A stretch of 64,000 bases of DNA, taken from contig CBDATS010000005.1 in NCBI GenBank assembly GCA_965200245.1, positions 544,001 to 608,000 on the forward strand. The letters are read 5' to 3'. This document shows, piece after piece, positions 7,956 to 36,829 of this stretch; position 1 is the stretch's first letter; each line of letters starts with the position of its first letter. This DNA is from a bacterium (GTDB lineage Bacteria; UBA8248). Made by a program: the position numbers and the translations under genes. A model generated the notes under the pieces. It was not told the origin of the DNA. It was given only the letters and a program-made list of their open reading frames with translations, and searched no databases.

Positions 7956-10816
7956 GCAGAACCCTCTGGGAGCAGGATGTATATCCCCATCATATCCATG
8001 GGCAGGACGGGATAGACTACTTGGTAACGCTGTTTATCCATCAGCGCACTGAAACGTTCGTGTGCAGCGACCAAGCGTTTGGATTGCTCCTCTGCGAGTT
8101 CGATGAACACTCCATCCAGCCGATCGAGGAGGTTCAGTTCGTTTTCAAGGAAAGCCATACGCGCTTCTGAACTCAGGTTGCTGCTGGCACAGACCTCGCA
8201 CAACAACTTATGTGCCCATTCGTGATCGAGGGACTCTCCGTCTTCTGGAGTGCCTCGCCAGCCCCAGAGTAGCATTTCCTCAGCAACAATCTGGTGGTTT
8301 CCCTTACTTTGTTCGATTACGTTTCGGCATCGGAAGAGCAGCAGTGTGGTTTTAGTCTCGACCTGCTTGGTACGGATGACAGAAGCGCGGGCCGCACGTT
8401 TACTCTCACGATTGACGGTGTTGGCCATGACCAGTTGGCATAACTGTTCAACGAAGCGGTGATTACGGCCGAGATAGTGGTAACCCTCTGGCGTAGGGGA
8501 GTCGAAGCTGATCTTGACGAGTTGTCCCTTTGGCAAAAGGCCATCTAGCTGATGTGGCAGATTGCCAGTTACGATGCCGAATCCCTGCTCCTCAGTGGTA
8601 ACTTGGACGCCGAAGAGGGCGGAGAGTGCGCCAGTCACAAAGTCCTTTACCGCGTTTGGATCGCCGATGGCCTCGTCTACGATGCGCAAGTCTTCTTCGA
8701 TCTCAGACGCCTTTATAGCGTTTTGGGCAAAGATACTGCGTGAGGCTTTTTCACGAGCGACTGCCTCGTCAATCTTCCGCGTTACACTCTCCTTGGCTTC
8801 TGCAGCCTCATCGAATTCACTGAAATCAAAGAGTGTGCCTTGTTGTGGTGTTCTGCGTGTCTGAATGCGGCGGTTGGGGTTTAAGAGCAACGACTGGGTA
8901 ATTGTGTCGATGATGCTCTGCGAATCCTCTGGAAAGGGCACGCTGATACCAGTATCTCGCCTGATTTCGCGCACCTTGCGCAGAAGTACGTCAAGCACGA
9001 TGCTATCAATAGGATTATCGGCGCCGTAAAGGGGACAGGCCTTGACCTCTGGCGCCTGCTGTCCGAAACGGTCGACTCGGCCTTCGCGCTGTTCAAGACG
9101 ATTCGGATTCCATGGCAGGTCGTAGTGGAGGACCGCGGTGAACAACTCCTGCAGGTTTATACCTTCGCTCAAACAATCGGTGGCAATAAGGATGCGAGGA
9201 TGGCTACCAGCCATCCCCTCGATACGCTGTTTACGCAGTTCGTCCGGATCCTCACTGGTGATAACTTGCAGATCCAAGTTCGGATTTTTCTTGGTCAACA
9301 GTGGGGCCAGATGCTCACCCACGTAGTTAGCGGTCGGAATGTAGCGGCAGAATACTACTGGGAAAAAACCGGACGATATCCATTCTTCAAGAACGATGGA
9401 GGCTGCGTAGAGCTTCTGATCGTCGTTGGTTCCGGCAAAGGACTCGAGCCGCTTGGAGAAACTGCGGAGTTGTCGGCGTTGATGATCAGTCCAATCTTCT
9501 AGCTCCACAACCTGGGTGGGTGCGTTATCGGTTTCCATGCCTAATTCCAGATCACCAACCGGATTGAGGTCAGGTTCCTCTTCAACGGACTCCATGTAGC
9601 CATCCTCCGTCTCCACGAGCTTATCAAGACGAGAGGCAAGCATTTTCATCCCGGTTCCTGGGCTCGACATGACGCCGCGAAGCAGGCCAAGCGCCGTCCA
9701 ATAGTGAACTCGTTTTCTCTTCTTCCCGGGGCCTTCTGACACAATCAGTTTGCGGACAAAATTCAACACGTCGTTGAATAGTTCAGCATAAGCAGATGAA
9801 ATGTCGTAGTTCCATTCGACCACATCACGGTTGGGAAAAGGCGTGTCCTCTCCCATCCACTTTTCCACGTCGGCTCGCTTACGTTGTACAAAATGTTTGG
9901 CCAAGTTGCGTCGTTCGGACTGACTGGAATTCGGCAAGTCCAGATTCATGAAGCTGGCATTCAGCAGACCCAGCAAAGAATGGAACTCCTCCGGCTTGCC
10001 ACTGTGGGGAGTCGCCGTGAGCATAATTAGGTGCTTTTCAGGTTTGTCTGCCAGATCACGAAGTAAGTGGTATCGTTGTTGTTGCGATTTGGAAGCGCCT
10101 GCGGGGAGGGCGCAGGTGTGGACTTCGTCGACGATGGCAAGTTCTGGGCATTGCTCGGTGAATACGGCACGACGACTGTCCGCTTTGATGTAGTCTATGC
10201 TGATGATCTGGTAGGGGTAGTAGTCGTATACACTTGTATCTCCTTGGATCATTCGATCCAACCTCGCCTGAGTATTGGAGCGGATGATTACAGCCTCGAT
10301 ACCGAGCTTGGCACGGAGTTCTTGCTGCCATTGGTCACAGAGGTGTGGCAAACAAATAACTGCAAAGCGCTTCACCTGGGCACGCTCAATCATTTCGCGC
10401 ACGATGAGTAGAGCCTCCACGGTCTTGCCTACACCAACGTCATCGGCGATCAGTAGCCGAACGGTGTCCTGCTGCAGAGCCATCACAAGCGGTACGATCT
10501 GATAGGCCCGGGGACGGAAGGAGAGCTTGGCCAAGGCCCGAAACGGACCAGCACCATTGCGAAAAGCCAAGCGGGCGGCGTTATAGAGAAGACGAGCCGT
10601 CGAAATGTCCCCAAGATCCTCAGAGTCGGGAGACGCAAAGTAAGCGTCTTGAGGGACATCGCCCGGTATCTCAAGCGGAAGGTATATTCCAGTAGTCTCT
10701 TCGTCGGAACCGCCCAGTGGCTTAACCATAAGCAAGTCGGGAGTCTCAGACGGCAGAACAACCCACTCGCGGCCGCGGAGTGAAACAAGTTTCCCTGGTT
10801 ATAGCGACGTACTCAT
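7952..10816 (-). pseudogene. SNF2-family helicase (DrmD-like) with a premature TAA at codon 6
   Basis: 'LIADDVGVGKT', DEVH, TATPH and 'LPWNPNRLEQREGRVDR'. The natural ATG at 10816 overlaps the upstream stop (ATGA) and reads MSTSL*PGKLVSLRGREWVVLP in frame with the 927-aa ORF. Confidence 0.8.
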
Positions 10817-13800
10817 CGGACTTTTGCGAAAATATCAGGACGTTTGGCAATCTTGGCAGCAATATCTTCACGATAATGCCAAGTCCAGACCTCATCACCA
10901 CGGGCAATTATCAACTGTCGCTGTTCATTATCGCACTGCTGCACCTCTAGATCATCATGGGGCGTTCCATCGCAGAATACCCAGATCCGAGGTTCGTAGT
11001 AGAAGTCTGGCTGGCAGTAGATCCCAGGTACTCGTTTTTGAGCAGCGTCCGGCAACCGTAGCCCATTCCGGTAAAGGTATTCGATAAAAGTGCGCTCAGT
11101 CGATGAGTTCGGATCCAGATGCTCAAGCATATGTTGATACTGTTCCTCGTAGTCCTTGAAAGCCAAGTTTTTCTGTACCTCGATATCGACAAGTCCGAGT
11201 TTCTTTAGAGCATCCCGAATCAGAAATCGATCAAGTCGCTGATGGTCTCTATGGTTATAATAACTCATGAGATCGTCGTACGATGCCGGAGCCTTGTATT
11301 CATCATCGTCGAACCGACATATTTGCGTAGCAACTTCGATAACCTTTCGGAAAATTGTCACATCTTCGGCAAACTGAGAGAGTATGCCCAGGCTTCCTTC
11401 AGTCGCTTCATAGAGAAGAATATTAGGGCACTCCAGATCACCTATCGAACTTACGCCGATCTCACTCGGTTCTACCTGAAAGACGGTCTCAATCCCCCGC
11501 TTTAAGGCATATTGAAGGGTGATAACGCCGGCGGACTCCAGACCCAAAACCTCAATCGGTTCAATATAAAGGGCATCGGCAATATTGGAGGTCCAAAGTT
11601 TGACAATACGGCATTCCTCGCGTGCACCGGGAATCGGTTCCGGCATTGAGTTGCGCCAGTTGCCCGAAGTCAACTCTATTGGGAAACCTTCGGCCTGGCG
11701 TGAGCGCCACCCTCTATTCACACTGACCAGACGCGCTGCCGGAATGAAACGAAGATTGAGCAGGGGATTCTCGCCCAAGCGAGCTATGACCCGACGAATA
11801 CTCGCGAAATTCCCTCCGTCGACATGAAAAAATGAATCGACTTGATATCCACGAGAGATGCGTTCCTCCTCCTCGCACGTAATGCGGGCTATTTCTTCAC
11901 CCCGCGATTCACTCATCTCCAACAGATCGTGTATGTGTTCTCTGTTTGCGTTGTCGCTCAGATTAAGATCGGAGAAAGGGCACAACTCAAGATCTTGCTG
12001 ATCTCCTATCAGAAAATACCCGGCACGTTTACTGATCTTCGCCTCTGTTAGCGATGATCCTGCGTCTTGGACGACCAACTGCGAAACCTGGAACTTACTC
12101 CCGTTGTGGTAGATGAGATTGAGTGGGCCGAATTCGCGCAAGGCGACAGCACGCGGACGAGAGATATACTCTCCTGAAGTCTCACCAGAGGGCACGAAAA
12201 TCCGTACAGGGAGACGCGTAAAGTTGTAACCTGGGAGAAATCCTTCGGAGGCTAAATAACGATACGGATAAAACTCGCTTAGTTCTAGAGATCCGCCTTG
12301 CTCGTTTCGCAGAAGATTGAGCTGTCGGTTGGCCTGGTCCTGCAACCGCTTATATTTCTTGTATTCTTTGCTTCCCACCTTGAGGCGACCTGACTCGATC
12401 GGTTGGGTTGCACGGGTCAATAGCACCCGAGTGTTCTGAAACATTTTGCGCCAGCGATCCATGGCTTTGTCGAGATTTTCCGCGAGGTTGTTCAGGTTCC
12501 GGTCGATCCAATCGTCGCTATACCATGCATTAGGCATGACTTTCAGATCCTCGGAGAAATCTTTGATCACACTTTGGAAGGTCATCTTAAGTGATTTAAA
12601 TGTCGTAGGTCCAAGCTTAAGTCCTTCGACGATGCTAGGCGAGAGAGGCATAGCTACGTCGCTGTCTGTGACAAGCTGCATTAAAGACGGGCGTTCACCG
12701 CCGCCCGCTTCCATTCCAGGTAGGCCAATTGCGCTGACAGTTAGAGCGTGCAAGTGTGTAAGAAGTAGTTCATGGTTGCACAGGTCAATCCGCGGTGCTT
12801 GCACGACACCTGCTACCAGTTCTGCTTGGCGTTGGAAATAGTGACGGTCATGAGCAGAGAAACCCGAGCAGTAAGTGAACACCTATGCTCCTTGCCCACT
12901 TCTACCTGCTCTGCCAGACCGCTGCACGTAATTTGCTGCATTGGGCGGAGCATTGCGCATGTGAACGACGCTCAGACCACCGATATCCACACCCAGTTCC
13001 ATAGTCGGCGAGCAGAAAAGTGCGCTTATCGATTCACTACGAATCTTGGCTTCGTCGGGAACTTTTTTGGACTCATCAAGATACCATTCTGCTCGAAATC
13101 GGTCTTCGTGGTCTTGTCGTGCGTCAACTCCGAGTTGACCGGTATGATCCGCCGCGACCAACCGTTTGCCGTTAGAAAGATCCAGATTATACATCTCTTG
13201 GAAAAAGGTATTCGGGGTAGGTTTCTGATCCTTGCATGAGCGTCGTTTAATCGGATCCGGCCTGACGGTCTCCCCGTCTCCGGGTTTCCAAAGAATCTTA
13301 TCAATACGGAGCCGATATACTGGTACTTCCTCTTTATTCACATTTTCGGCAATTTCTTCGAAAAGATAGTCGGCGTCTGTCAATTTGCGCATTAATCGCA
13401 GGATGAAGTTACGGTAGAGGTCACCTTGAAGAGTCCCCGGATCGATGTCAGATTGTGCCATAAAGTGCTTGATGTACTTCCCGAGCGAACTCGCGGGACC
13501 CATGCTCTTGTTGGAGAGATGAACCCTCTTATGCAGTGGATCGAGCCGAATGACTGAAGGCGCTGGCAGTTCTTCATCTGCGTCGAGAGTCCACGGCGCC
13601 TTCAGTTGCTCACGGAAGCGTTTCTCGAATTCTTTGAGACGATTAGGACTCAAATAGTTTTTGCTATAGATGGCATATTCGAGGCGGAAATAGTCGAGAA
13701 CTGTGACAATAAACTCGCGACGATCCGTATGGCCTAGGCTGTTTACAAATTCAAGGTCGGCCCAAAACTCGTCTGCAACAACAATCTCATCAATGTCTAG

Positions 13801-15984
13801 GTAGTCGATATCCAGAAGGGCACATTGTTCCAGGTTGGGAAGGACGATGCGCCAACTACGACGAAGATCCGCTAGAGCACGAAAGAGCAGATAATCTTGG
13901 AGAGCTTTATCATACTTCCGCTTAACTGGGGCCAATGTCGGTTCCGAATCACGGTTACCGTAATCACGGAAAGACAAAGATAATGATTTAAAAAGCGCTT
14001 CACCAAGTGTCGCGTAGTTAAGCACACCATCCGTAGCAGTCTGAAGCGCTTGACGGATCCCGGCACGAAGACGAACGACCTTGACGAAATCATTAAAGTG
14101 ACCGGCTTGTAGAGCAGCGTCTTGCCGGTTGTCAGTGAAGCTCAGAAGCTTCTGGTCACGCAGAGACTGTCCGCCGTCTCGCAAACGGTTGAGGGTCAAA
14201 AAAGCCGTGATGGTTGTCCAAGTGCTTCGCCCTTCGTTGCCAAGTTGTGTCAGCTTTGTCCCTTCATTCGCCTTGACGTCATAGAACACACCTCCAGTCG
14301 GGTCGAAGAGGAGTGGGGCTCTCATGAACCAGCCCCGATACTTCATTGATTCTGTATCGGAGAAGTTTCCATATTCGTCGAAGTATAACTTAATAGGAAA
14401 TTGTGCGATTTTTTTTGAATCTGGAACCTTCCTTCCGTTCGCGCGGATCCGTGTCCAGGCTTCCGGCAGGTAGTCGATATCCTGATCCGGATCCCATATC
14501 TCGTCACCGATGATCAGATAGCCATCCGTGGAATCTTCCTCATCATCACCTGCAGCACGAAATTCCCGGGGCTTTAGTTGTCCATCTACCAAGGAAACAC
14601 AGATAAAAGGGTGGCCTGTGGCCCTGCTGAAGACATTGGGGAATATAGGCATGCTATTGTCATCGCGTTTGTAGATACCCGGCTCAAGAGTGATGAACCG
14701 AGCTTCATCTTAGGCGAGCGTCGTGTAAACCGACCCTGTTTGAGCGATGAACTGGTGGAGCTTGTAAGGTAGGATCGTATAGGGTGAGTTATCTTCTTGA
14801 ATACGCTGGTTGACAAAGCTTATCCATTCGAGTGTTGTCTCGAGAGCCAAACGGCTTTTTGCTTCTGGTGCTCCTGAGTCTTCAGCAAGTGTCACGACGA
14901 CATCCCTGAATTCCATAGGCCGACGTCGAAGCAAGCGCCCATCACACACATCAAGCGCAATGCGGTTTTCAAACCAGATTGCCACTGGATGCTTGCGTAG
15001 TTCGTTCTCACTTGCATCAGTATCTATACCTGCGGTTATGGCCGTATGAAGCTCTTGTTTGGAAGGAAGTGCACCTACAGCACCGAGCGACTGAGCCAGT
15101 GTCTCTTCAATAATTTGGGTAGGCTGGAATTGTCGACCGAAGACCTTACTAGCGACACCCGCGACTTCCTCCCGACGTGACTCTACACTATCTGCCGAGA
15201 TCATGGTCGCAGAGGTGCCAATGCAGCAGATCGATTGCTTGCATTGTGACTGGATGCGCCGGATGAGCATGGAAACGTCCGCACCTTGCCTTCCGCGGTA
15301 GGTGTGAAGCTCGTCAAAGACGAGATAACGAAGGTTGTTGAAAATGGCATCTCGGATGGGCCGTTCTTGCATTCGGGTTAGCAGAAGTTCAAGCATCATG
15401 TAATTGGTGAGGAGAACTTGCGGGGGTTCGTTACGAATCCTCTCCCGTCGCTGCTCACTTTCCTGGCCGGTGTACTGCGCAAAGGTAATGGGAAAAGTTT
15501 GTCCTGCGTTCTTTTCGTAATTGCCCTTATAGGTGCTGAATTCGTTCGTTTGCGAGTTAATTAGGGCGTTCATTGGATAAACGATGACCGCCACAACTCC
15601 TTCCGAACGACCATTATCAAGCAAATGATCGAAAATCGTGGCGATATAGGTCAGTGATTTACCTGAACCAGTTCCAGAAGTCACGACAAAATCGGAGCCA
15701 TTTCCCCCTAGTTCAATGGCCTCACGTTGATGGCGATAGAGAGAATATCCATCAAAGATATGGCGAGCGTCATTATGCAGTAATCCTGAGTCAACTACCT
15801 GTTCAACAGTACCAACCTGTTCGTAGGCAGGATTGAATTGCAATAGAGGTTCTGGCCAGAGGCGACCCTCGGAAAGCGACTCTTCGACCTTCTCTGCGAT
15901 TTCTGGGTCGGAAATATTGATAAAACTGCCAATGTATGACGCATAGTCAGCAATAATCTGCTTGTGTGTATCAAAGACATTCAT
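10813..15984 (-). pseudogene. Large SF2 DEAH helicase (~1720 aa) with DUF1998-like domain and C-terminal DUF559/Vsr-like nuclease; two in-frame nonsense codons
   Basis: Three ORFs share one frame: 'SGTGSGKS', DELH and TSAT; 'TMELGVDIG' and 'QRSGRAGR'; 'LLYEATEGSLG' and 'PDFYY..IWVFCDGTPHD'. They are separated only by TAA (14710-14712) and TAG (12883-12885). Confidence 0.85.
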
Positions 15985-16098
15985 AGCTGGGCCCTTAGAA
16001 ATTACACTCGTGTCAGGAGAAAAGAGCATTACATTGTACTACCAACTTTGTAGCGAACACCAACCCCAAGTAATGGTATCGATCTTTACTTGGTTGTG

Positions 16099-17399
16099 TT
16101 TAAACGAGTTCCCCGATGATTTCGTGTTGATTTTGGGTTCAGGCGATTGATTTCATGGGGGATATTGCGGGCGGGAACAGAAATGCCGTTCCCATGTACA
16201 TCGAAACCGTTCCCAACCGGAATTCACCGCCTGCCATCCTGTTGCGCGAAGGATGGCGTGAGGGCGGGAAAGTCAGAAAACGCACGCTGGCCAACCTCCC
16301 GAAATGGCCCCAAAGCAGGACCGACACCCTGCGCCGTCTGCTGCGGAACGAACCCCCTGTTGGTTGGACGATGCCTTCGACATCGTGCGTTCCCGACCCC
16401 ACGGCCATGTCGCCGCAGTGCCCGGCACACTGCGGAAGCCGGGTCTGGAGCGGATCATCGCCCCCGGCGCTCCTGCGCGCGTGACCGCGTGGTGGCGATA
16501 ATCGTCGCCCGGGTACCCGATCCGGGGTCCGGGCCAGCCACTGCCCGGGTCCTGCCAGGGCCACGGCGCGGGATTCGCTGGCCGACACGCTGGATTTGGG
16601 TGCCGTGGACGGGGACGACCTGTATGCGGCCATGGACTGGCTGCCAGCGCGCCAGGAGCGGATCGAACAGAGCCTGGCCCGGCGGCATCTCGAAGAAGGC
16701 GCCCTGCGACCTAACCCCGGTCTGCGTGGAAGGACACCACTGCCCGCTGGCGAAGCGCGGGTATTCGCGCGATGGCAGGAAGGGCAAGGCTGCAGATCGA
16801 ATCCGGGTTGCCGTGCGACCGGGACGGCTGTCCCGGGGCGATGGGTTCGCAGGTCCGGAAGCTGCGGGAACGCTTCGGGCTGTCGAAGGTCGTTCTGGCG
16901 GGAGACCGGGGAATGCGGACCGGGGCGCGTGCGCGCAGGCGGGAGACCCTGCCGGAAGCTACGGAGAAGCTGCCGGAACCCATCGCTGCGGCAACGCGGC
17001 GGGAGAAGCGGCGCCTGAGAGGAAAGACAGGACCGGGCCGCGCGGGTGGGCAGGGTCATCGGCAGGTACAGGGTGGCCAGACATTTCGCGTGGCGGGTCG
17101 ACGCTGGGGGCCGGTTCCACTGCCGGCGCGACGCTCAGAGGTCGCCCAACGCAGGGCCCGGCGCAAACGCACCGACAGGGGCTGGCACGTGCACAGCTTC
17201 CGCACCCTGCTCACCGACCCTGCCACCATCACCCGCAACCGGTCAATGCTTCGCCTGGCCTGCTGACCTGCAGGACGAAGCCTTCCGTCTGCCCGGCGTG
17301 CCGTTGTAGTCCTGTTCCCGGTAACCAATTCCTGATTCATCGAAACAACCAGCATAATCAATGGGATAATCCGTGATAGCCGGGGAACTTCAGTTTAAA
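16099..17399 (+). mobile_element. Degenerate IS1634-family insertion sequence
   Basis: Transposase fragments 'MYIETVPNRNSPPAILLREGWREGGKVRKRTLANL', 'DDLYAAMDWL..RQERIEQSLARRHL', 'KRGYSRDG' and 'HSFRTLL' in shifting frames. Imperfect terminal inverted repeats tttaaacgagttccccg (16099-16115) and cggggaacttcagtttaaa (17381-17399). Confidence 0.8.
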
Positions 17400-17599
17400 A
17401 TAAAGGGAATGATTAGGAATTGTTCACCTACTCGGTTGCTTAATTCCCATTCTCTAGAGGGTCATCTTATAAGTGCTTTATAGCACGTTATATTGGTGCG
17501 TTAACTTTGGTTATCTATTCAATTAAAATCCATTGAATCAAGAACTTGTGAGAGTCTTGGCGGAATTCCCTCTCACCATTTCCACCAACAAGACAAATC

Positions 17600-18445
17600 T
17601 TACGCATCGATCATGGTGAGGGCAGCTCCTCGGGTTCCCATACCTTGTCGCACCCCCATTTTTTCAGCTACTCCATTCATACATGAAATGACACCATCTT
17701 CCCAAGTACTCATCACATCGCCAATACGTGCAGTCATGGTTCCGACCGCAGCCACTGCGATCCCCGCTCCCGCCAGATAGGGAAAAGAAGCGATGCCCGA
17801 ATCATCTTTTCCCCGGCCTGCGTCATTCGCAATTACCCCCTTCAGATTGAGCTTCAAGACATGAGGAACAAGAGTAAGTCCGCAGTGCGAGGCTTGGATG
17901 AAAACATCTCGGGGTCTCTGCTCATTAACAGAACGCAAGACGGGAATTCCCCACGAAGCGCGTATATTGCCGTTAGGAAAATGGCCTAATTCATAAATTC
18001 TATCATCAAGACTCTCCTCGACAACCACTTTCCGGCCCACTTCGGCATTCATCAAACAAATCGAGGCTTTGGCAACGGGCTGGCCAATTTCAACACCTAG
18101 ATCACGGGCCGCTCGATTCGCATGGCCGACTTCGCCTTGATAAACGGATTCACCCACTGCAAGTCTGGCCGACATTGTCTCACACGCCATTGCAGGAATA
18201 TTGTACTCTTGTGCCAAGCGCAGGCCGCTGATACCCGCATCATCCTTCCCAACTCCCGCTGCATGGGCGACGATTGCCCTTGCACCCAGGCGCATCGCCC
18301 AGGCAATCGTCATGCGCGCCGCGTAAGAACCCGAGATAAGCACGTCATTTTTTCCGGCCTTTTCGTCAAAATACGTCATCGAATCCGCCGAAATTATGCG
18401 GCCACGCGCGTCTTCGTAATGAATAATATGTTCATCTGTCGTCAT
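17600..18445 (-). CDS. Hypothetical protein with an internally duplicated domain
   Basis: Two copies of a repeat: 'HAAGVGKDDAGISG...TMSARL' and 'NDAGRGKDDSGIAS...TMTARI'. Start chosen at ATG 18445. Confidence 0.75.
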   Translation of the reverse strand: MTTDEHIIHYEDARGRIISADSMTYFDEKAGKNDVLISGSYAARMTIAWAMRLGARAIVAHAAGVGKDDAGISGLRLAQEYNIPAMACETMSARLAVGESVYQGEVGHANRAARDLGVEIGQPVAKASICLMNAEVGRKVVVEESLDDRIYELGHFPNGNIRASWGIPVLRSVNEQRPRDVFIQASHCGLTLVPHVLKLNLKGVIANDAGRGKDDSGIASFPYLAGAGIAVAAVGTMTARIGDVMSTWEDGVISCMNGVAEKMGVRQGMGTRGAALTMIDA

Positions 18446-18886: not shown

Positions 18887-19552
18887 TTACGCCATGTCTT
18901 TCGCCTGGAATTCGATTCGTCCTCCAGGAGGTTCCACCACCAAGTGAAGCGCCTCCGCCAGCCTGCCGGAAAGGTGCCACATACCACAAATAAAAGTGAG
19001 TTCCACAATCTGCCTATTGGAAAAGTATTTTTTCATCTCACTAAAAGCAAAATCGTTTTTCTTTGCGGTGAATTTCGACACTTCATCCGCCCACCGAATG
19101 ACAGCTTTTTCTTTTTCATCGAACAAATCGCTGTCTTTCCAATCATCGCTTTCTAACAGACTGATTTGCTCTTGTGTAAGTCCCAGGGCTCGACCGAGCT
19201 CCACGTTGTGCCCAATTCAGTTGTTACATTCAGTTAATATTGCCGTTTTGACGATGACGAGCTCCATGAGCCGTATGTAATCGGACTCTGTTTTCAATCG
19301 ATTCGTCCGAAGCTTTTGGTCAAGCAGCATCCACCCTTCCACCGTGGGGGGTGAATTTCCCAAGAGCTGCAGAAATCGTGGGACAGTGCCCCACATTCGC
19401 TTCGACCAATCATAGAGCGGAACGAGTTCCTCCGTGAGTTCTTCAGGTATGTTATCCGGATCAACGAAAGGCAACCTTGGCAGGGGACACGCCATCATCT
19501 CTTCGGTTACACCCAAATTATCTGGCAAACTCGTTGCTTTATCTATGGTCAT
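18887..19552 (-). CDS. AhpD/carboxymuconolactone decarboxylase-family selenoprotein (CxxU)
   Basis: The 117-aa and 105-aa ORFs are in frame across TGA 19217-19219, reading 'ELVIVKTAILTEC-N-N-U-IGHNVELGRALG'. RBS GAGGAG precedes ATG 19552; a hairpin follows the UGA. Confidence 0.85.
19186..19202 (-). promoter_or_regulatory. Putative SECIS hairpin of the AhpD-like gene
   Basis: GG(A)GCUC-GGUC-GAGCCC; the loop starts with G about 21 nt 3' of the UGA. Confidence 0.5.
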
Positions 19553-19581
19553 TGGGTTCTCCTCTAACAAGACTGTTGTGA

Positions 19582-28631: not shown

Positions 28632-29000
28632 ATGCACGAATATATCATCTGCTTCAGCGACAACTTGAAAATCGCCGTACACCTTTTCAGTCTGCCCGGC
28701 CAATGGTTCGTCTCGGCTCGGGAATATCTGTGTAACAGGATACAGCGGAAGAAAGAACTTGACCACAATCGACATGCCCGTCACTTGAGTAAAGCCATTT
28801 TTTCACCCTCGCGCCTGATTGTCGAGGTTACGCTGTCATTGCAGGCGCTCGCGGACGTCACCCCCACTGGAACAGGCCAATAGGATGCCTACGATAAAAT
28901 CACTTACCTGAAAACAGTTGAAGGCGTCGATCCCGAACAGATCGGCCTGTAAGGTACAGGTTTTGGCGGGGCGCACGCCATTTGGGTAACGGCAGGCGGC
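28632..29000 (+). pseudogene. Alpha/beta-hydrolase remnant
   Basis: 'FSDNLKIAVHLF', 'TGYSGRKNLTTIDMP', 'PDCRGY' and 'DAYDKITYLKTVEGVDPEQIGL*GTGFGGAHAIW', broken by frameshifts and stops. Confidence 0.65.
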
Positions 29001-29174
29001 GCTGATATGTGAGTTGTAGTGAACGAAGCACGTCATGCCCATCCACTATTCGAGCCTACCCCAACTCACGGGAACGCCCGAGGCGTTCATTCAGGAGCTG
29101 CGCAAGTGCGGTCTCAATACGGAGAGCATCGACTTGAAGTCAGGAGAAAACGCAACCATCTAATTTCGCTTCTG

Positions 29175-29618
29175 TTACGCGCCGGGTCTCTCGATGAGTT
29201 CGAGTGTGTTGCCGTCCGGATCCTCGACGTAGACAACGTACCCACCCTTGTTGGGGCCTTGGGTGACGGGCACGGGTGGAGAGACAAACTTCACCCCACG
29301 GGGCGCGAGTGTCTCGTACATCCCTTTGAGATCATTGACATTGTATGCGATATGCGCGCTGCCCACGTTGTTCGTGGCGGTATCTATCTTGACGCCGGGT
29401 GCGCCGACATACTCCACGAGTTCGATATGGTAGTCCACACCCCGGACGTAGATGATGCGAAGGTCGGCACCCGGGATACCAGTCACCTTCTCGCTATAAT
29501 CCTGGGGTCGAGTCTCGTCCGAAACGATAGTAAAACCAAGCATTTCGCAGTACCATTTTGCTATCGCAGAAGCGTCAGAGACCGTAAAACTCGTATGGTT
29601 GATACTCACAAGACCCAT
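29175..29618 (-). CDS. VOC (glyoxalase-like) family protein
   Basis: 'INHTSFTVSD', 'IELVEY', 'HIAYNV' and 'EDPDGNTLELIE'; GGAGG RBS. Confidence 0.88.
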   Translation of the reverse strand: MGLVSINHTSFTVSDASAIAKWYCEMLGFTIVSDETRPQDYSEKVTGIPGADLRIIYVRGVDYHIELVEYVGAPGVKIDTATNNVGSAHIAYNVNDLKGMYETLAPRGVKFVSPPVPVTQGPNKGGYVVYVEDPDGNTLELIERPGA

Positions 29619-29975
29619 CTTGTGCCTCCTTTAAAGCTATCGGTTCGGGAACGCATTCCCCCTGTTTCCGCCGTTTTCAAAGACGCAATTATGGCATAGC
29701 GAGGTGTCCAAATTTCAGAAAAACATCGTGAATTCATCTGAATTTATCGAGGTCGATCGCAGCACCAGAGTGACCACCAAGAAAGGAAATTCAGGGAATT
29801 ATAAACAAAAACATACCAAAGATACCCGAGTTTTTCGCACTGCCAGAGTATCCGTCCCCTCCCCGGCAAATCAGGCGCGTATTCATTGGTTCCGCCGGGG
29901 CGGGGTGACGGCGCACTTCATTTTCGCTACAAATGCTCCCTGTTGTCTCTTCTATTTCCTTTTCGGGCGGACGGT

Positions 29976-31394
29976 ATGATGGCGTATCTGAGCGCGGCGG
30001 CGAACGTGCTCGTTCATGTTCCCGATCTGGTTCGCTACGGCTCGAAACCCTGGCGCGAAGCTCAAGGAAAAGAGCAAGCACCGGGCAGCGAGTTCGTCGG
30101 GTTGCGCTCTTTCAAAGATGCGCTCAGCTACCCACCGAACCAAGCGTTCATCGGTAATATCACGCCAGAGAAAATGAATGACATTCCCTCTCCTTGGTAC
30201 GAGAATCCCCTGCTAGACGCCTCGCACGAAAGCCCCTTTGGGGAAATCCTACCACAGAGTGCCTTCTACACCCTTATTGAGGCGGCGGATCAGTTCGGGC
30301 TAATAATGCTTGATAAGGAACGTATTGATTCAGGCGTTGTGAACTCTGAATCCGCCGCCGCTCTTCTCGATAGAGAAAAACCTGCCAAGGAATACAAGCG
30401 AGAAGAGATTTCAGAACGTATCGAGCGTGGAGAGGCCTTGCCGCTTTTCGTGGCCAGCGAACTCCTTGGGTGCGTTCGCCGCGATCATGACGCGGACGAA
30501 TCCTTGGACGCACGTATTCTTCTGGAGAACCTCGCGGCCAAGGCCAGCGGCGCTTACGCCTTAAGCCGTCTGCTCACGCAGGAGAGCATCGCGCCGGAAC
30601 AGATAGAGTACGTCATCAGTTGCTCGGAAGAGGCGGTAGGGGACCGATACAATCGCGGCGGTGGCAATCTCGCCAAGACCATCGCCGAGATGGCGGGCTG
30701 CGTGAATGCAGCGGGCGTGGACGTCAAGTCTTTCTGCGCGGCGCCTGTCAATGCGCTCGTTCACGCTGCAGCCTTGATCGAGGCGGAGGTCGTTGAGAAC
30801 GCCGTCGTCGTAGGCGGCGGCTCCATGGCGAAACTCGGCATGAAGGCCTACTTCCATCTCGAAAAGGGAGTACCCGTGCTGGAAGACGTATTAGGCGGAT
30901 TGGCGTTTTTTCTCACGAAAAATTCGGGCGATGGTCCTCGGGTGAATCTCGAAATCTCGGGACGCCACGTGATGGGCAAGCCTTCCACGCCCCAAGGACT
31001 TGCGGAGGCGCTCGTGCGCGACCCACTGGCCCGCGCCAGGCGCAAGCTGACGAGCGTCGATAAGTACGCCGTCGAACTGCATAACCCAGAAATCATGCTG
31101 CCCGCCGGTGCGGGAGACGTCGCTGCCGCGAACTATAGAATGCTGGCCGCCTTGGCAGTTATGGGCGGGGAAATCGAACGCGAGGAAATTCCGGGTTTCA
31201 TCAAAACCCACGGGATGCGCGGATTTGCGCCCACACAGGGACACATCCCCGCCGGCGTTCCCTTTCTCGGGCACGCGCTTGAGAGGATGCGAACAGGCGC
31301 GCTTGTGAGTACAATGGTTGTAGCCAAAGGGAGTCTGTTTCTGGGCCGGATGTCCCGCCAGGCCGACGGGGCTTCAGTGCTGTTGGAAACGTGA
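29976..31394 (+). CDS. grdC: Glycine/sarcosine/betaine reductase component C, beta subunit
   Basis: '[12 protein letters not shown]', '[10 protein letters not shown]', '[16 protein letters not shown]', 'FCAAP', 'ELHNPEI', '[10 protein letters not shown]' and 'KGSLFLGRM'. Confidence 0.88.
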
Positions 31395-31426
31395 TTCGTC
31401 TGTTTATCCGCAGGCGGAGGATACTA

Positions 31427-31879
31427 ATGTTTGAGGGCAAAAAGGTGATCGCGTTGGGCGAGCGCGACGGCGTTCCCGGCCCGCTTATCGCGGAATGCCT
31501 CAAGGCAGCGGGTGCAGAGGTCGTGTTCGAAAAGACGGAGTGTTTCGTCTGAACCTCCGCGGGTGCCATGGACCTGGAGAACCAGACCACTATCAAATCG
31601 ATCGCGGATGAAATCGGGGTGGATAATCTGATAGTGGTGGTGGGAATACCCGGTGAAGGCCTTCGGCTCGTAGTCGAAACGCTGACCACCGGGGACCCGA
31701 GTTGGGCCGGGCCCCTGGCGGGAGTTCAGTTGGGGCTCCCCGTGTTCCACATCCTTGAGGAAAAGGTGCGGACCCTTATTCCCGAGGATGTGTACACCGA
31801 GAAACTGCTCATGATGGAAATGGTGCTCGATCTGACGCAGATAGAGAGCGATCTGGCTTCTATGCGAGCGGCGGGCTAG
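31427..31879 (+). CDS. grdA: Glycine/sarcosine/betaine reductase selenoprotein A (150 aa, Sec42)
   Basis: GGAGG RBS; reads [19 protein letters not shown]...TECFV-U(TGA 31550-31552)[11 protein letters not shown]; also '[21 protein letters not shown]'. Confidence 0.93.
31555..31579 (+). promoter_or_regulatory. Putative SECIS hairpin of grdA
   Basis: Bulged stem-loop CUCC..GGGU..C-CAUG-GACCUGGAG immediately 3' of the UGA. Confidence 0.4.
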
Positions 31880-31889
31880 GGGGGCGATC

Positions 31890-33173
31890 ATGTCCATGCG
31901 ACTGGAGATGGGTATTTTTCCCGTCTCAAAAATCATTGTCGGAAAGCGCTTCGCGTATAAAGAAGAGACGCTCACCGTGGACGCGGATGAGCTTCGAGAA
32001 ATCGCTCTGGAAGCTGGCGACCTTAAGAGCGTGAGCTTTCACGCGGGCATGCCGGGCGAATCGGCACGAATAACGAACGTATTGGACTCCGTCGAGCCCC
32101 TCTACAAAGTGAGCGGGTACTCATGTGCCTTTCCAGGATTCATGGGCCCCTCCAAGACCGCGGGCGAAGGCCGCACCCACAAACTCGCTGGGATGTGCGT
32201 CATCAGTTCCACGCATTTCCTAGGGCCCATGACGGGCATCATGAGCTTTCGCGAAGGGATTATCGACATGTGCGGCCCTGGCACAATTCATTGTACGAAT
32301 TCAGAGACCGCGAATCTCGTCGCCTGCTACGAACCGCTGGAAGGCACCTCGAACGAAGCACACGATGACGCCGTACGTCTTGCAACACTCAAAATAGCCT
32401 CCCGGCTGGCCGAACACACGAAGGATATAGAGCCCACGCGGGTCGAGACGTTCGAACTCGCAGATGTCGACCCCGCTCTTCCTCGCGTCGTTTATGTCGA
32501 TCAGATCATGCACCAAGCTTCCATGGTGCAGACTTTCATGTACGGCAAGAACTTTGGGGATTCACTCCCCACCCTCATTCATCCGAACGAGATGCTCGAC
32601 GGCGCGGTCGTTGGAGCGAATTACAAGACGCAGCAGAAGGCACCGACCTACCTCCATTGCAACAAGCCGCTCATATACGAACTCTACCGCCGCCACGGAG
32701 CGGATATCAATTTCACAGGAATGATCATTACACGCGGCCACCACGACAACCAAGCCCTTAAGGAACGCTCGGCGCAATACGTGGCCAAGCTCGCAACGCT
32801 CCTAAAGGCCGACGGCGCGGTTCTCGCCTTCGAGGGTGGCGGCAATTCCACGGTGGACTATTGGCTCACCGTCCAAGCACTCGAGCAGATGGGTGTACGT
32901 GCTGTGCCTATCATCTACGAGGTGGGCCGGCCAGGCTCGGGCGAATTCCCGCTCGTCTTTCACGTGCCGGAAGCCGACTCTATCATCTCCAAGGGCATGC
33001 AGGGGGAGCGCATCGCCGCCCCGGCAGTGGAGCGTGTCATCGGCTCGGAAATCGTTGATTTCTATAACGGCAGGAGCTACAACGTCCGCGAAGCGTTCAC
33101 CCTGTCAGACAGCGACTACTACGCAAACGAGTGGGCGCGGGACATCAACCACATGATTGGCAAGGCGTATTGA
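31890..33173 (+). CDS. Reductase component B alpha/beta proprotein (GrdE/GrdG/GrdI family)
   Basis: 'PGESARIT', 'GEGRTHKL', 'EGIIDMCGPG', 'PTLIHPNEMLDGAVV', 'KERSAQY' and 'EGGGN'. Confidence 0.85.
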   Translation: MSMRLEMGIFPVSKIIVGKRFAYKEETLTVDADELREIALEAGDLKSVSFHAGMPGESARITNVLDSVEPLYKVSGYSCAFPGFMGPSKTAGEGRTHKLAGMCVISSTHFLGPMTGIMSFREGIIDMCGPGTIHCTNSETANLVACYEPLEGTSNEAHDDAVRLATLKIASRLAEHTKDIEPTRVETFELADVDPALPRVVYVDQIMHQASMVQTFMYGKNFGDSLPTLIHPNEMLDGAVVGANYKTQQKAPTYLHCNKPLIYELYRRHGADINFTGMIITRGHHDNQALKERSAQYVAKLATLLKADGAVLAFEGGGNSTVDYWLTVQALEQMGVRAVPIIYEVGRPGSGEFPLVFHVPEADSIISKGMQGERIAAPAVERVIGSEIVDFYNGRSYNVREAFTLSDSDYYANEWARDINHMIGKAY

Positions 33174-33335
33174 GGGCAGGAAGGTCAATATGAGCATGCG
33201 TGAGAAGATGGAAGGCCGGGAGTCGTTGACAAGACAACCGCGTATGGTGCGAAAATACCGAAACACAACAGAAACCGTGAATATCAATTGCATATATAAA
33301 ATGGCTTTGGGTGAATTCATCCCTTGAGGCGAGAC

Positions 33336-34652
33336 ATGAGCACTAAATTTCGGGTCGTTCACTATTTGAACCAGTTCTTCGCTGGAGTGGGGGGCGAGGA
33401 TAGGAGCGATCATCCTGCCTCCGTCCTGCCCGGCCCCGTCGGCCCCGGCGTATTACTCGACAAGATATTAAAGGAGGAGGCTGAAGTCGTCGCCACGGTC
33501 TTTGCGGGCGATGGCCATTTTGCCGAAAACGAGGCGTCCTGCGCCACAGCAGCGTTCGCACTCATCAAGGAGCACTCACCCGATCTCCTTATCGCAGGCC
33601 CCGCCTTCAACGCCGGGCGCTACGGGCTCGCCTGCTCCGCCATCTGCCAATCAGCACAAGAGGCGGGCCTTCCCGTCGTCACCGCCATGCACCCGGAGAA
33701 TCCTGGTTTTCCCGCCGCAGGATTCGGTGTTCACACCGTTCCCACCACAGACTCTGCCATCGGCATGGAGGAAGCCCTTGAGGCCGTCGCCCGCCTGGGG
33801 CTCAAGCTCGTCCGGGGTGAGAAGATCGGAAGCGCCGCAGACGAAGGCTATCTCCCGCGCGGTATTCGCTATAACGAAATCGCCGAGTTCCCGGCCTCGC
33901 GACGCGCCGTCGATATGGTCCTGAAGAAAATCCGGGGCGAACCCTACCAGAGCGAACTCGATGTTCCCGTCCTTGAAGAGATAGTGCCTCCAGAACCCGT
34001 TGCCGATCTCAAAAGGGCCCGAATCGCCATCGTATCAGAGGGCGGTATGGTGCCTCCCGACAATCCTGATCGCTTTTCCGGATCGAGAAATGAAAACTGG
34101 GCCACGTATTCCCTGGAAGGAAAAGACGCCCTGCCGGGCGGTGCGTTCATCTCGATACACGGCGGCTTCAACACCGTGTTCGTGAACGAGGAGCCCGACC
34201 GCATGCTCGCCGTCGACGCCTTTCGCAGGCTCGAGAACGAGGGTGAGATCGCAGCGCTCCACGATGATTTCCTGAGTACTTGCGGCAACGGCGGCGCCTT
34301 CACCACCATGGACGGCATCGGCCGAGCCTGGGCCGCAGAATTGAAGAAGGCCGGGGTGGAGGGCGTCGTTCTCCCCGCCACGTGAGGAACCGGCACGCGC
34401 AGCGGGGCTGCGCTGGCGAAAGCTTTGGAAAGAGAGGGCATTCCTACCGTCATTGTCACCTGTCTGCCCGATGTGGCGCGTGACATCGGGGTTAACCGGA
34501 TCGTCAACAACCGCGCCGGGCACTTCCATCATCCTTTTGGCGATCCGTCCCGGACCCCCGAGGCCGAGCGAGAATGGCGCCTGGGCGCGGCTCGCGCGGC
34601 CGTCTCGACGCTTACCAAAACAGTGGACGGCCCCACGGTATTCGAGTACTAG
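33336..34652 (+). CDS. grdB: Reductase selenoprotein B (GrdB/GrdF/GrdH family, 438 aa)
   Basis: 'VVHYLNQFFAGVGGED', 'GPAFNAGRYGLAC' and 'HPENPG'. An in-frame TGA at 34383-34385 joins it to 'GTGTRSGAALAKALEREGIP...HPFGDP'. Confidence 0.9.
34397..34413 (+). promoter_or_regulatory. Putative SECIS hairpin of grdB
   Basis: Perfect 7-bp stem GCGCAGC-GGG-GCUGCGC beginning 11 nt after the UGA. Confidence 0.65.
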
Positions 34653-34805
34653 GCAAAATACTACGACGCCCGGCACGAGCAGCACACAGGAGAGCCGCTT
34701 TGTCAGACAAGACGGCAATCAGGTGAGTCGTGATTTCCGAAAACCATTTCCTGTCAGTCGGCAAGCGTCGGCAAGCCGTGATCGCTCCTCCCGAACCATC
34801 CCGCT

Positions 34806-35786
34806 TTATACCGTCACCCCCAGCGCTTTTTTTGCGGCGTCGACGACGTTGGTGACGTTGGGGAGCACGAAGTCCTCAAGACGGGGCTCGAAGGGAATGG
34901 GCGCGTCCAGGGCGGCCACGCGGCCAATGGGGGCGTCGAGATAATCGAAGGCTTCCTCCTGAACGGCTGCTGATATCTCCGAACCCACGCCACTTCTCAG
35001 GTGACCTTCCTCTACGATAATGCAGCGGTTCGTTTTCCGAACCGATTCAGCGAGCGTCCCCGTATCGAGCGGGGCGATCGTCCTGGGGTCGACGACTTCG
35101 GCACTGATGCCTTCCTTTTCGAGTTCATCCGCCGCCGCCAGGCAGTTGTGCACCTGATAGCCCACGCCGATGAGGGTGATGTCACTGCCCTCCCGCTTCA
35201 CGTCGGCCTGGCCGAAAGGGATCAGGTATTCCCATTTGGGCACACGGCCCTTGATCTTGTAGAGCATCTTGTGCTCCACGACGAGCACGGGGTTGCCGTC
35301 GCGGATCGCCGTGCGCATCAGGCCCTTGGCGTCCGCAGGGTCGCTCGGCACTGCCACCCTGATCCCCGGAATCTGCATGAACCAGGCCTCCAGGCACTGG
35401 CTATGCGTGGGGCCGTACTGCACGCCGCCGCCGCCGGGGGTGCGCACGACGAGAGGCACGCTCAACTGCCCGCCCAGCATATAACGCAGCTTGGCTGCCT
35501 GGTTAATGAGTGGGTCCATCGCCAGCATGATGAAGTCCATGAACATGATCTCGACGACGGGCCGGTAGCCCGCCATGGCGGCGCCCACGCCTGCACCCAC
35601 GATCCCGAGTTCACTGATGGGCGTGTCACGTACCCGGTCTTTCCCGAATCTGTCCGCCAGCCCCTTCGTCACACCGAAGACGTAGGCCAGTTCCACATCC
35701 TCGCCCATCACGATGACGCGCTCGTCGCGCTCCATTTCTTCGTGATGGACTTCGTTCAACGCATCCACAAAAGTGATTTCTCGCAT
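34806..35786 (-). CDS. TPP-dependent acetoin/2-oxoacid dehydrogenase E1 beta subunit
   Basis: 'MGEDV', 'DTPISELG', 'PVVEIMFMDF', 'HSQCLEAW' and 'DYLDAPI'. True start is MREITF at 35786. Confidence 0.9.
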   Translation of the reverse strand: MREITFVDALNEVHHEEMERDERVIVMGEDVELAYVFGVTKGLADRFGKDRVRDTPISELGIVGAGVGAAMAGYRPVVEIMFMDFIMLAMDPLINQAAKLRYMLGGQLSVPLVVRTPGGGGVQYGPTHSQCLEAWFMQIPGIRVAVPSDPADAKGLMRTAIRDGNPVLVVEHKMLYKIKGRVPKWEYLIPFGQADVKREGSDITLIGVGYQVHNCLAAADELEKEGISAEVVDPRTIAPLDTGTLAESVRKTNRCIIVEEGHLRSGVGSEISAAVQEEAFDYLDAPIGRVAALDAPIPFEPRLEDFVLPNVTNVVDAAKKALGVTV

Positions 35787-35839
35787 GTCACCTTTCTCCA
35801 GTTTTTCCTGAATGGCACCGCGCCGGGGGACGGGAGCCA

Positions 35840-36829
35840 TCAGGCGTATACGTCCTCGAGCGCAGATTCGAGCGTGGCTTCCGGACTCTGCTCCGCAAAC
35901 GCGATGGCGTCGTGGAGTTCCCTGTCCACGGCCTTGAGGTGCGCTTTCTTCTGCGCTTCCGTGAGTTTCAGCATATCCGCCGCAATCGTCAGCGGATCGC
36001 GCTTTCTCCATTCGTCCACCTCTTCTTTCGTGCGGTAGGGACCGAACTGGGGATCGCCACGCGAGTGTCCGAAAAAGCGGTAGGTCTTCGCCTCGATGAG
36101 GCTCGGACCTCCTCCCTCGCGCGCCCTTCGCACCGACTCGGCGGTCGCCTCGTAGACGGCCACCACGTCCATGCCGTCCACCGTCACGCCGGGGGCGTTG
36201 TAGCCCTGCGCGCGCACGCTGATGTCCTTCACGGCGGTGGATCGCTCGACGTGATAGCTTACCGCATAGTGGTTGTTCTCGCAGAAGAAGATGACCGGCA
36301 GTTTCCAGATCGCGCACAGGTTCATCGACTCGTGAAAACTGCCCTGGTTCGAGGCGCCGTCGCCGAAGAAGACTACCGCCACGCGCCCCAGGCCTTCCAG
36401 CTGATAGGCGAGACCCATGCCCGTAGCCATCGGCATGTTTGCCCCCACGATGGAGTGCGCGCCGTAGTGGCCCTTCGAGATGTCGGCGATGTGCATGGAA
36501 CCGCCCCGCGCCTTGCAGAGGCCGGTGGACTTGCCGAGAAGCTCGGCCATCATCTCGGGCATCCGGGTACCCTTGGCGATGGAGTGTCCATGGCCCCGGT
36601 GGGTGGTCAGGATGGCGTCGTCCTCGCCCAGCGCCGCGCAGACGCCGACCGAGCACGCCTCCTGCCCGATGCTCACGTGAACCGCCCCCTTCACCTGCCC
36701 CGCCATGAAAAACTCGTCCGTCTTCTCTTCGAAGCGGCGGATGCGCAGCATGTTGCGGTACATCGCGTTCAAGTCTTTTTTCGTCAGCCTTTTCGGCTTC
36801 GTTGACCTTCTTCTCGTCCTGGTGGCCAC
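35840..36829 (-). CDS. TPP-dependent acetoin/2-oxoacid dehydrogenase E1 alpha subunit
   Basis: 'THRGHGH', 'RGGSMH', TPP motif 'GDGASNQG...ENN' and 'TYRFFGHS'. Confidence 0.9.
   Translation of the reverse strand: MATRTRRRSTKPKRLTKKDLNAMYRNMLRIRRFEEKTDEFFMAGQVKGAVHVSIGQEACSVGVCAALGEDDAILTTHRGHGHSIAKGTRMPEMMAELLGKSTGLCKARGGSMHIADISKGHYGAHSIVGANMPMATGMGLAYQLEGLGRVAVVFFGDGASNQGSFHESMNLCAIWKLPVIFFCENNHYAVSYHVERSTAVKDISVRAQGYNAPGVTVDGMDVVAVYEATAESVRRAREGGGPSLIEAKTYRFFGHSRGDPQFGPYRTKEEVDEWRKRDPLTIAADMLKLTEAQKKAHLKAVDRELHDAIAFAEQSPEATLESALEDVYA

Follow-up and report, generated by a model that had tools for sequence, protein, structure and literature searches.

A conserved four-gene cluster of the glycine/sarcosine/betaine reductase family with altered component B active sites and no neighboring grdD

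The gene cluster

The 64-kb stretch of bacterial DNA analyzed here (contig CBDATS010000005.1; hereafter the window, whose positions serve as coordinates throughout) carries genes of the selenium-dependent glycine/sarcosine/betaine reductase (Grd) family. A preliminary description had placed four co-oriented genes at 29976-34652, coding for component C beta, selenoprotein A, a subunit resembling the component B proprotein and the component B selenoprotein. NCBIfam and Pfam scores confirm this assignment. With TGA read as selenocysteine (Sec) in the grdA and grdB-like frames, the cluster has the following parts.

29976..31394 (+): grdC-like gene (component C beta), 472 aa; NCBIfam NF040746 reduct_C_beta, 576.8 bits against a cut-off of 450; Pfam DUF5940
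31427..31879 (+): grdA (selenoprotein A); NF040748, 198.3 bits against 130; Pfam GRDA, 198.3 bits; motif CFVUTSAG
31550..31552 (+): in-frame TGA, Sec of GrdA (U43 in P0002 numbering), inside CFVUTSAG
31569..31589 (+): small, weak hairpin 3' of the grdA TGA; z -0.8; consensus -4.95 kcal/mol
31890..33173 (+): grdE-like gene (non-selenoprotein subunit of component B), 427 aa; Pfam Gly_reductase, 351 bits; Tyr245 in GANY-KTQQK
33174..33335 (+): spacer of 162 nt between the grdE-like and grdB-like genes (E-B spacer)
33336..34652 (+): grdB-like gene (selenoprotein B), 438 aa; TIGR01918, 417.8 bits against 65.45; Pfam GRDB, 397.5 bits
34383..34385 (+): in-frame TGA, Sec350 of the GrdB-like protein; motif P-A-T-U350-G-T-G353-T-R-S356-G
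34392..34417 (+): hairpin resembling a selenocysteine insertion sequence (SECIS), 3' of the grdB TGA; -22.1 kcal/mol, z -2.0, compensatory changes

The gaps between C and A, A and E, and E and B measure 32, 10 and 162 nt. Scores of the A, B and E-type proteins above curated subfamily or Pfam cut-offs (TIGR01918, GRDB, Gly_reductase, GRDA) place the cluster in the Grd superfamily, and GrdC and GrdA also pass their equivalog cut-offs. All four genes are under purifying selection (ratios of nonsynonymous to synonymous substitution rates, dN/dS, of 0.06-0.18 in four pairwise comparisons), and 20 relatives, like the window, have intact frames for all of them. An Rfam scan of 29000-36000 (E up to 1) returned no family and no riboswitch, and promoter and terminator scans gave counts not above those of shuffled sequences. 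Sequence searches of solved structures found none for the GrdC-like, E-like or B-like protein.

Component B has altered active sites

To place the cluster among known systems, we used the reference loci below, numbered, like all loci here, with an L.

L002, Acetoanaerobium noterae: grdX-trxB-trxA-grdE-grdA-grdB-grdC-grdD; glycine reductase reference
L001, Enterococcus gilvus plasmid pCR1A: trxB-trx-grdA-grdC-grdD-grdI-grdH-BCCT; betaine reductase reference
L064, Peptoclostridium acidaminophilum: grdG-grdF; sarcosine reference
L066, Photobacterium sp. DA100: full set including grdD
L065, Terrisporobacter petrolearius plasmid: prdA-prdB; D-proline reductase reference

Relatives came from a genome scan with a four-sequence alignment, which gave 61 loci. 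Twenty-three of these belong to the clade of the window and carry the labels Nitrospinota, Nitrospinaceae or Tectomicrobia.

Altered active sites in both component B subunits had been proposed for this cluster, and the alignments bear this out. The pyruvoyl-forming Cys of A. noterae GrdE, within SGNC, aligns with Tyr245 of the window E-like protein, which therefore cannot form a pyruvoyl group from Cys. Tyr is found at this position in all 24 clade E sequences, and the betaine subunit GrdI of E. gilvus has Phe there. None of the E-like genes of the 61 loci has Cys in the pyruvoyl column (L027_E1 has Ser), although these loci were gathered using patterns drawn from the family of the window itself, which biases such counts. 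In selenoprotein B, the sequence STUGTCTRCG of the reference proteins reads ATUGTGTRSG in the window: Sec350 is kept, and the Ser of STUG and both downstream Cys residues are lost. Of 23 clade B genes examined, 22 read UGTGTRSG, with L021 excluded because a contig end cuts its B gene; the exception, L015, departs after UGTG. B subunits from other phyla show intermediate states in which one Cys is lost. Measured against canonical GrdABCDE, the window has a GrdC, has no GrdD adjoining or fused to it, and lacks both the pyruvoyl Cys of GrdE and the UxxCxxC of selenoprotein B.

The clade B proteins typically carry Cys316, within STCGNGG, which we considered as a relocated resolving thiol in place of CxxC. 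This idea did not hold as a general rule, since the two features do not strictly co-vary: the Binatia group, L030 and L049 have neither, and L033 and L050 have both.

Selenocysteine decoding

The preliminary description had also claimed two in-frame UGA codons with downstream hairpins. Both codons stand, as does the grdB hairpin; the grdA hairpin is weak. Every clade B gene examined, 23 in all from 22 loci plus the window, retains the grdB TGA. In 20 related sequences the grdB hairpin has 10 pairs, with 98% of cells paired and three pairs changed on both sides, and none of 500 shuffles reached its covariation score. The grdA hairpin is indistinguishable from chance by folding alone, because 40 of 200 shuffles fold equally well; its consensus was drawn from 23 sequences. 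We nevertheless read the grdA TGA as Sec, because GrdA keeps the CxxU redox motif and TGA stands within it in 23 of 23 clade sequences.

At L015 (6384-6443), the grdB-like gene no longer follows the rest of the family immediately 3' of the Sec codon (UGTGRATPKRGAD), and its hairpin is missing; a frameshift, an error of assembly or pseudogene formation could explain this. BSepDB, which assigns a genome bearing the L015 isolate name to the GTDB phylum UBA8248, credits it with 54 selenoprotein genes (PMC13326102).

Elsewhere in the window, an in-frame TGA at 19217-19219 falls within the CMD/AhpD-like domain (Pfam, 23.3 bits) of a 227-aa frame at 18887-19570 (-). The motif around it, ECNNUIGH, is a CxxU version of the AhpD CxxC site, and the downstream fold is no better than shuffles (z +1.38). 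This frame may be a third selenoprotein gene of the window.

Gene order is conserved in relatives

The order C-A-E-B is found in 20 of the 23 clade loci; contig ends truncate the other three, which agree with it as far as they go. The four-gene order is thus conserved in every relative that can be judged, as the preliminary description had proposed should be checked. The flanking genes, by contrast, differ even among the closest relatives, which indicates that the cluster is a self-contained module. Recurrent neighbors in relatives are themselves variable and include an SDR protein, a putative cyclase, MmgE/PrpD, a multicopper oxidase and an acyl-CoA dehydrogenase.

In one subclade (L017, L019), a two-subunit CoA transferase (Pfam CoA_trans) directly follows the grdB-like gene, followed in turn by an M20 peptidase and a pyridoxal phosphate (PLP) enzyme. 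The transferase would fit activation of released acetate; the window has no such gene.

Six relatives (L003, L004, L009, L011, L012 and L022) have an additional 0.4-2.5 kb of DNA in the E-B spacer. Among the ORFs (open reading frames) in this spacer, those with a Pfam match are DNA-methylase-like (L004) and PIN-domain (L009) frames, and L004 and L011 share an ORF pair there.

GrdD is missing and GrdC is of a short-tailed type

The cluster had been described as lacking grdD, thioredoxin and transporter genes. We found no GrdD (Pfam FA_synthesis, a PlsX-like family), thioredoxin, thioredoxin reductase, sel gene or BCCT transporter in the 64-kb window, using tblastn with reference proteins, Pfam scans of 29 + 28 + 8 ORFs and ARAGORN, which reported only a tRNA-Asp. 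Within 10 kb of the cluster in the 23 clade loci, there was no tblastn match to GrdD, Trx, TrxB, GrdX or BCCT; the same search picked them up in the reference loci as well as in L029, L033 and L050. Scans of flanking ORFs in relatives, in sister-clade loci and in other GrdD-less loci likewise revealed no FA_synthesis gene.

In all five reference or D-containing loci, GrdD directly follows GrdC or is fused to it. The C terminus of GrdC differs accordingly: the tail after KGSLFLGRM is 12-17 residues long in 26 of 26 GrdCs without an adjacent GrdD, whereas in all 5 GrdCs with one it measures 46-49 residues or gives way to a fused GrdD. These GrdCs are not independent and represent about six and about four lineages. 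The window GrdC has 12 residues after this motif and lacks the tail of GrdD-associated GrdCs. GrdD-less GrdCs form a distinct short-tailed class. Outside the clade, GrdC adjoins GrdA without GrdD in loci from Blastocatellia, Chloroflexia, Dehalococcoidia and Methylomirabilota, and on this comparison of gene content the cluster is to be counted among a recurrent GrdD-less architecture.

GrdC-GrdD fusions of about 840 aa with FA_synthesis and DUF5940 domains are encoded at L033 (13320-15848) and L050 (12174-14690), from metagenome-assembled genomes (MAGs) of Bacillota and Spirochaetales. A search for longer relatives of the window GrdC gave 416 such C-D fusion proteins, the best 50% identical to it. 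Those with names are mostly from Bacillota, Treponema and Cloacimonadota, and none is named Nitrospinota.

Cys254 of GrdC lies in SFCAAP at the nucleophile position and is invariant in the alignments. A structure model of GrdC (predicted local distance difference test, pLDDT, 67.7; predicted template modeling score, pTM, 0.76) has OleA, FabH and PqsBC, which are acyl-Cys enzymes, as its closest folds; as modeled, the window GrdC is a FabH/OleA-like thiolase-fold protein. A homodimer model scored 0.92, against 0.00 for the best of three controls, with at least 76% of contacts agreeing between runs and a partner pLDDT of at least 88. Among proteins solved as pairs of one chain, 20 of 30 attain the mark for this score, compared with 1 of 23 among those solved as single chains; these counts are a rough guide here because our own alignment was used. 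Resemblance to solved KAS III-type dimers may account for the dimer result. The model does not tell GrdD-less from canonical GrdCs, as a canonical one would probably form a homodimer in modeling too.

The component B subunits fall outside the characterized families

Selenoprotein B of the window misses the equivalog cut-off of every characterized family: 387.6 bits against 602.2 for GrdB (TIGR01917), 415.8 against 800 for GrdF (NF040794), 353.9 against 775 for GrdH (NF040795) and 84.3 against 300 for PrdB (TIGR04483). The same is true of the E-like protein, with 253.7 against 780 for GrdG (NF040793), 131 against 675 for FarE (NF053623) and 28.5 against 700 for PrdA (TIGR04480). The references pass their own cut-offs (A. 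noterae GrdB, 945.7 bits; E. gilvus GrdH, 798.2 bits). Identity to the window subunits is 39.3% for A. noterae GrdB and 33% for A. noterae GrdE. In a library of 50% cluster representatives, the nearest cluster beyond the window's own was 47% identical.

Trees of both subunits were built with a quick method, with SH-aLRT support only and PrdA/PrdB (L065) as outgroup. The B tree has 53 rows, after exclusion of rows shorter than 400 aa and of an odd 595-aa row (L032). It places the GrdH, GrdF and GrdB references outside a 46-row clade (support 97), within which the window falls into a 22-row clade (support 100) labeled Nitrospinota and Tectomicrobia; the sister of this clade is a Burkholderiales MAG, followed by the Binatia group. 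The E tree has 61 rows; 10 of the 24 clade rows were kept, and rows below 380 aa were left out. It agrees with the B tree (supports 99 and 96), and GrdI and GrdG lie outside the window's clade. By the trees (supports 97 and 99 for the exclusion of the references) and the missed cut-offs, neither subunit nests inside a characterized glycine, sarcosine or betaine clade. As far as its sequences tell, the B component is a distinct, uncharacterized Grd lineage that has no CxxC and is predicted to have no pyruvoyl group.

Side by side with the glycine reductase of A. noterae, the window has the same C beta, A, E-type and selenoprotein B families, Sec in both A and B, CxxU, and a FabH-like GrdC with its Cys. 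It differs in the absence of GrdD, GrdX, TrxA and TrxB from the cluster, in the order C-A-E-B, in the short GrdC tail, in Tyr for the Cys of SGNC, in the changed Sec motif of B and in falling short of the GrdB cut-off. With GrdH/GrdI of E. gilvus it shares a non-selenoprotein subunit without the pyruvoyl Cys (Phe in GrdI, Tyr in the window), but GrdH keeps STUGTCTRCG, and GrdD, Trx, TrxB and BCCT, all present in the E. gilvus cluster, are absent from that of the window. The sarcosine subunits GrdF and GrdG of P. acidaminophilum also lie outside the window's clade. The D-proline reductase subunits PrdA and PrdB are distant superfamily kin, with both cut-offs far missed; PrdB is a protein of about 240 aa that works without GrdA or GrdC. 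We found no published description of a GrdD-less C-A-E-B architecture in our literature search, and none that joins Nitrospinota with glycine reductase or GrdB.

A further system to compare is the fluoroacetate reductase FarACEB of Cloacibacillus porcorum. In this system, the pyruvoyl Cys residues are reported to be missing from farE, and the CxxC that follows Sec from farB; fluoroacetate can form no Schiff base and requires none, and transfer of the carboxymethyl selenoether to proteins A and C is predicted (PMC10838667). The window shows the same two losses, with the state of the Far proteins taken from this published account. The far operon differs from the window cluster in that it has a transporter and a radical S-adenosylmethionine (SAM) gene and borrows GrdA, GrdC and GrdD from its host; the window cluster carries its own GrdA and GrdC. 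Neither the farA antiporter nor the farC radical SAM gene is found beside the window cluster or among the recurrent neighbors of its relatives.

Discussion

Selenium-dependent reductive cleavage tied to substrate-level phosphorylation in amino-acid-fermenting anaerobes has its textbook case in the Grd enzymes. In the canonical glycine reductase, acetyl phosphate is the product and thioredoxin is the reductant. The occurrence outside fermenters of a conserved, selected cluster without the phosphorylating subunit suggests a chemistry adapted to another substrate and another acetyl fate. We tentatively read the four genes as a self-contained member of the Grd family with an uncharacterized substrate class, an explanation that we consider plausible while giving it somewhat less than an even chance.

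Within this reading, the B component would most likely carry out reductive cleavage of a non-amine X-CH2-COO- compound by way of GrdA and GrdC, without phosphorolysis of the GrdD type; we infer both the substrate and the fate of the acetyl group. A non-selenoprotein subunit without the pyruvoyl Cys, as in GrdI and the window E-like protein, implies a substrate that needs no Schiff base, and the precedented active-site changes point to one with an intrinsically good leaving group. The E-B pair would bind the X-CH2-COO- compound, where X could be a quaternary onium group, as in betaine, or a halide, as in fluoroacetate reductase. Sec350 would attack the alpha carbon, X would depart without a Schiff base, and the carboxymethyl group would pass to the Sec of GrdA. 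As the GrdA CxxU pair closed to an Se-S bond, the two-carbon unit would move to Cys254 of GrdC as an acetyl thioester. With no PlsX-like GrdD to phosphorolyze this thioester, the acetyl group would leave as acetate, as acetyl-CoA or via a housekeeping enzyme, and not as acetyl phosphate. A housekeeping thiol system would re-reduce GrdA.

A bolder proposal is that C-A-E-B is the first recognized class of Grd-type selenoenzyme to work without GrdD, spread across non-fermentative phyla. Here, a GrdC homodimer would release acetyl-CoA or acetate, and the E-B pair would cleave a non-amine X-CH2-COO- compound new to the family, such as a sulfonium, an arsonium or a halogenated acetate. We regard this as possible but doubtful. 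If it were true, the chemistry would serve assimilation or detoxification, and not fermentative ATP synthesis, in phyla that include Nitrospinota-labeled MAGs, Tectomicrobia, Chloroflexota, Acidobacteriota and Methylomirabilota.

The preliminary description had suggested a reductase of different substrate or mechanism. The altered sites, the lack of nesting and the conserved GrdD-less order speak for this; the claim is weakened because both active-site losses have precedents, in GrdI, which has no pyruvoyl Cys, and in FarB and FarE as published. Several other points limit the case. The flanking ORFs of relatives hold no conserved transporter or accessory gene that would indicate a substrate, and the flanks of sister-clade E-B pairs and of other GrdD-less clusters hold no shared transporter and no substitute for GrdD. 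The negative result for grdD covers the window and the 10-kb flanks rather than whole genomes. The absence of trx genes from the cluster is uninformative because thioredoxin systems are housekeeping genes. GrdD-less GrdCs also occur with B subunits that keep CxxC (L029, L052), which makes the missing GrdD and the changed B site independent traits. Lastly, Cys359 of GrdD is reported to have a catalytic role in acetyl phosphate formation, on which our literature search gave no paper.

The cluster could instead encode an ordinary betaine reductase or another canonical Grd enzyme that makes acetyl phosphate in the usual way, its grdD, trxA and trxB being located at some other place in the genome. 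The E-like protein, without its pyruvoyl Cys, resembles E. gilvus GrdI in this respect, and GrdA and GrdC score as equivalogs. Dispersal of grd genes also has examples: neither an A nor a C gene lies within 10 kb of the sister-clade E-B pairs in Burkholderiales (L025) and Binatia (L037-L042, L046), and at L052 an A-C pair lies 6 kb from E-B. Grd parts can thus be encoded apart, and a distant grdD is conceivable. We still judge a canonical enzyme to be unlikely. The window B falls far short of the GrdH model, GrdH and GrdI lie outside the window's clades, and GrdH retains the Ser and both Cys residues that the window has lost. Further, there is no BCCT gene near any of the 23 clade loci, and the window GrdC lacks the tail that is present in all five GrdD-associated GrdCs.

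Alternatively, the cluster could encode a reductive dehalogenase for haloacetates, similar to FarEB, with its own GrdA and GrdC. The two losses published for FarB and FarE and the predicted transfer of the selenoether to A and C agree with such an enzyme (PMC10838667). On the other hand, the 131 bits of the window E-like protein with the FarE model lie below even the 200.6 bits of the glycine-type GrdE of A. noterae, and no farA-type antiporter or farC-type radical SAM gene adjoins the cluster or recurs in its relatives. The Far proteins were compared through the FarE model and the published description, outside the tree. On balance, we consider a dehalogenase of this kind quite improbable. 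It is very hard to see in the cluster a Grd operon in decay, or one left without function, after the loss of grdD, as the missing grdD, the lost catalytic Cys residues, the inserted DNA in the E-B spacer of six relatives and the departure of the L015 B gene right after Sec might suggest, when all four frames are intact in the window and 20 relatives under low dN/dS, both TGA codons and the grdB hairpin are kept, the latter with compensatory changes, and the altered motifs are invariant across the clade.

A self-contained Grd-family member of another substrate class would offer a compact, four-gene target in the search for a new Grd-family substrate, and one in which GrdC can be tested on its own. 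The short GrdC tail is a simple sequence marker that separates Grd clusters with GrdD from those without.

Flanking genes, host lineage and other loci

As stated in the preliminary description, the cluster is bounded by a divergent VOC gene and by convergent E1 genes, which were assigned by a Pfam scan of the window ORFs.

29175..29618 (-): VOC/glyoxalase gene, divergent to the cluster
34806..35801 (-): E1 beta gene, convergent to the cluster
35840..36829 (-): E1 alpha gene, convergent to the cluster

We considered the VOC, E1, RND and other neighboring genes as functional partners and rejected them, as they do not adjoin the cluster in relatives; given the variable flanks, VOC and E1 are bystanders.

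The host is not clostridial, in agreement with the earlier view, and belongs to an uncultured marine lineage. The nearest named relatives of the window FtsZ are from Nitrospinota and Nitrospinaceae MAGs (73-78% identity), and the nearest named GrdB-like proteins (85-55% identity) are from MAGs labeled Nitrospinae or Nitrospinota. Since both proteins have their relatives in the same lineage, the cluster sits in its native lineage. The window also holds the dcw cell-division cluster, c-type cytochrome genes and an RND pump.

Other arrangements of Grd-like genes were seen among the collected loci. In Dehalococcoidia (L054, L057, L058, L060, L061 and L062, at about 6200-17100 in each), two to three tandem or fused GrdE-like genes occur without GrdB, GrdA or GrdC and are flanked by four family III CoA-transferase genes; here, the E-type family has no selenoprotein partner nearby. 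Two Chloroflexia loci without GrdD (L034, 8781-17494; L051, about 8971-17660) share the order alcohol dehydrogenase-E-B-C-A-aldehyde dehydrogenase-F420-type oxidoreductase-luciferase-like monooxygenase.

Finally, a run of genes resembling a defense island lies at 4281-16029 (-) of the window, where the G+C content is lower (0.50-0.53). It includes an MmeI-type methylase with target-recognition pieces, an SNF2-type helicase, a protein with an MrfA Zn-binding domain and DEAD-box helicases.

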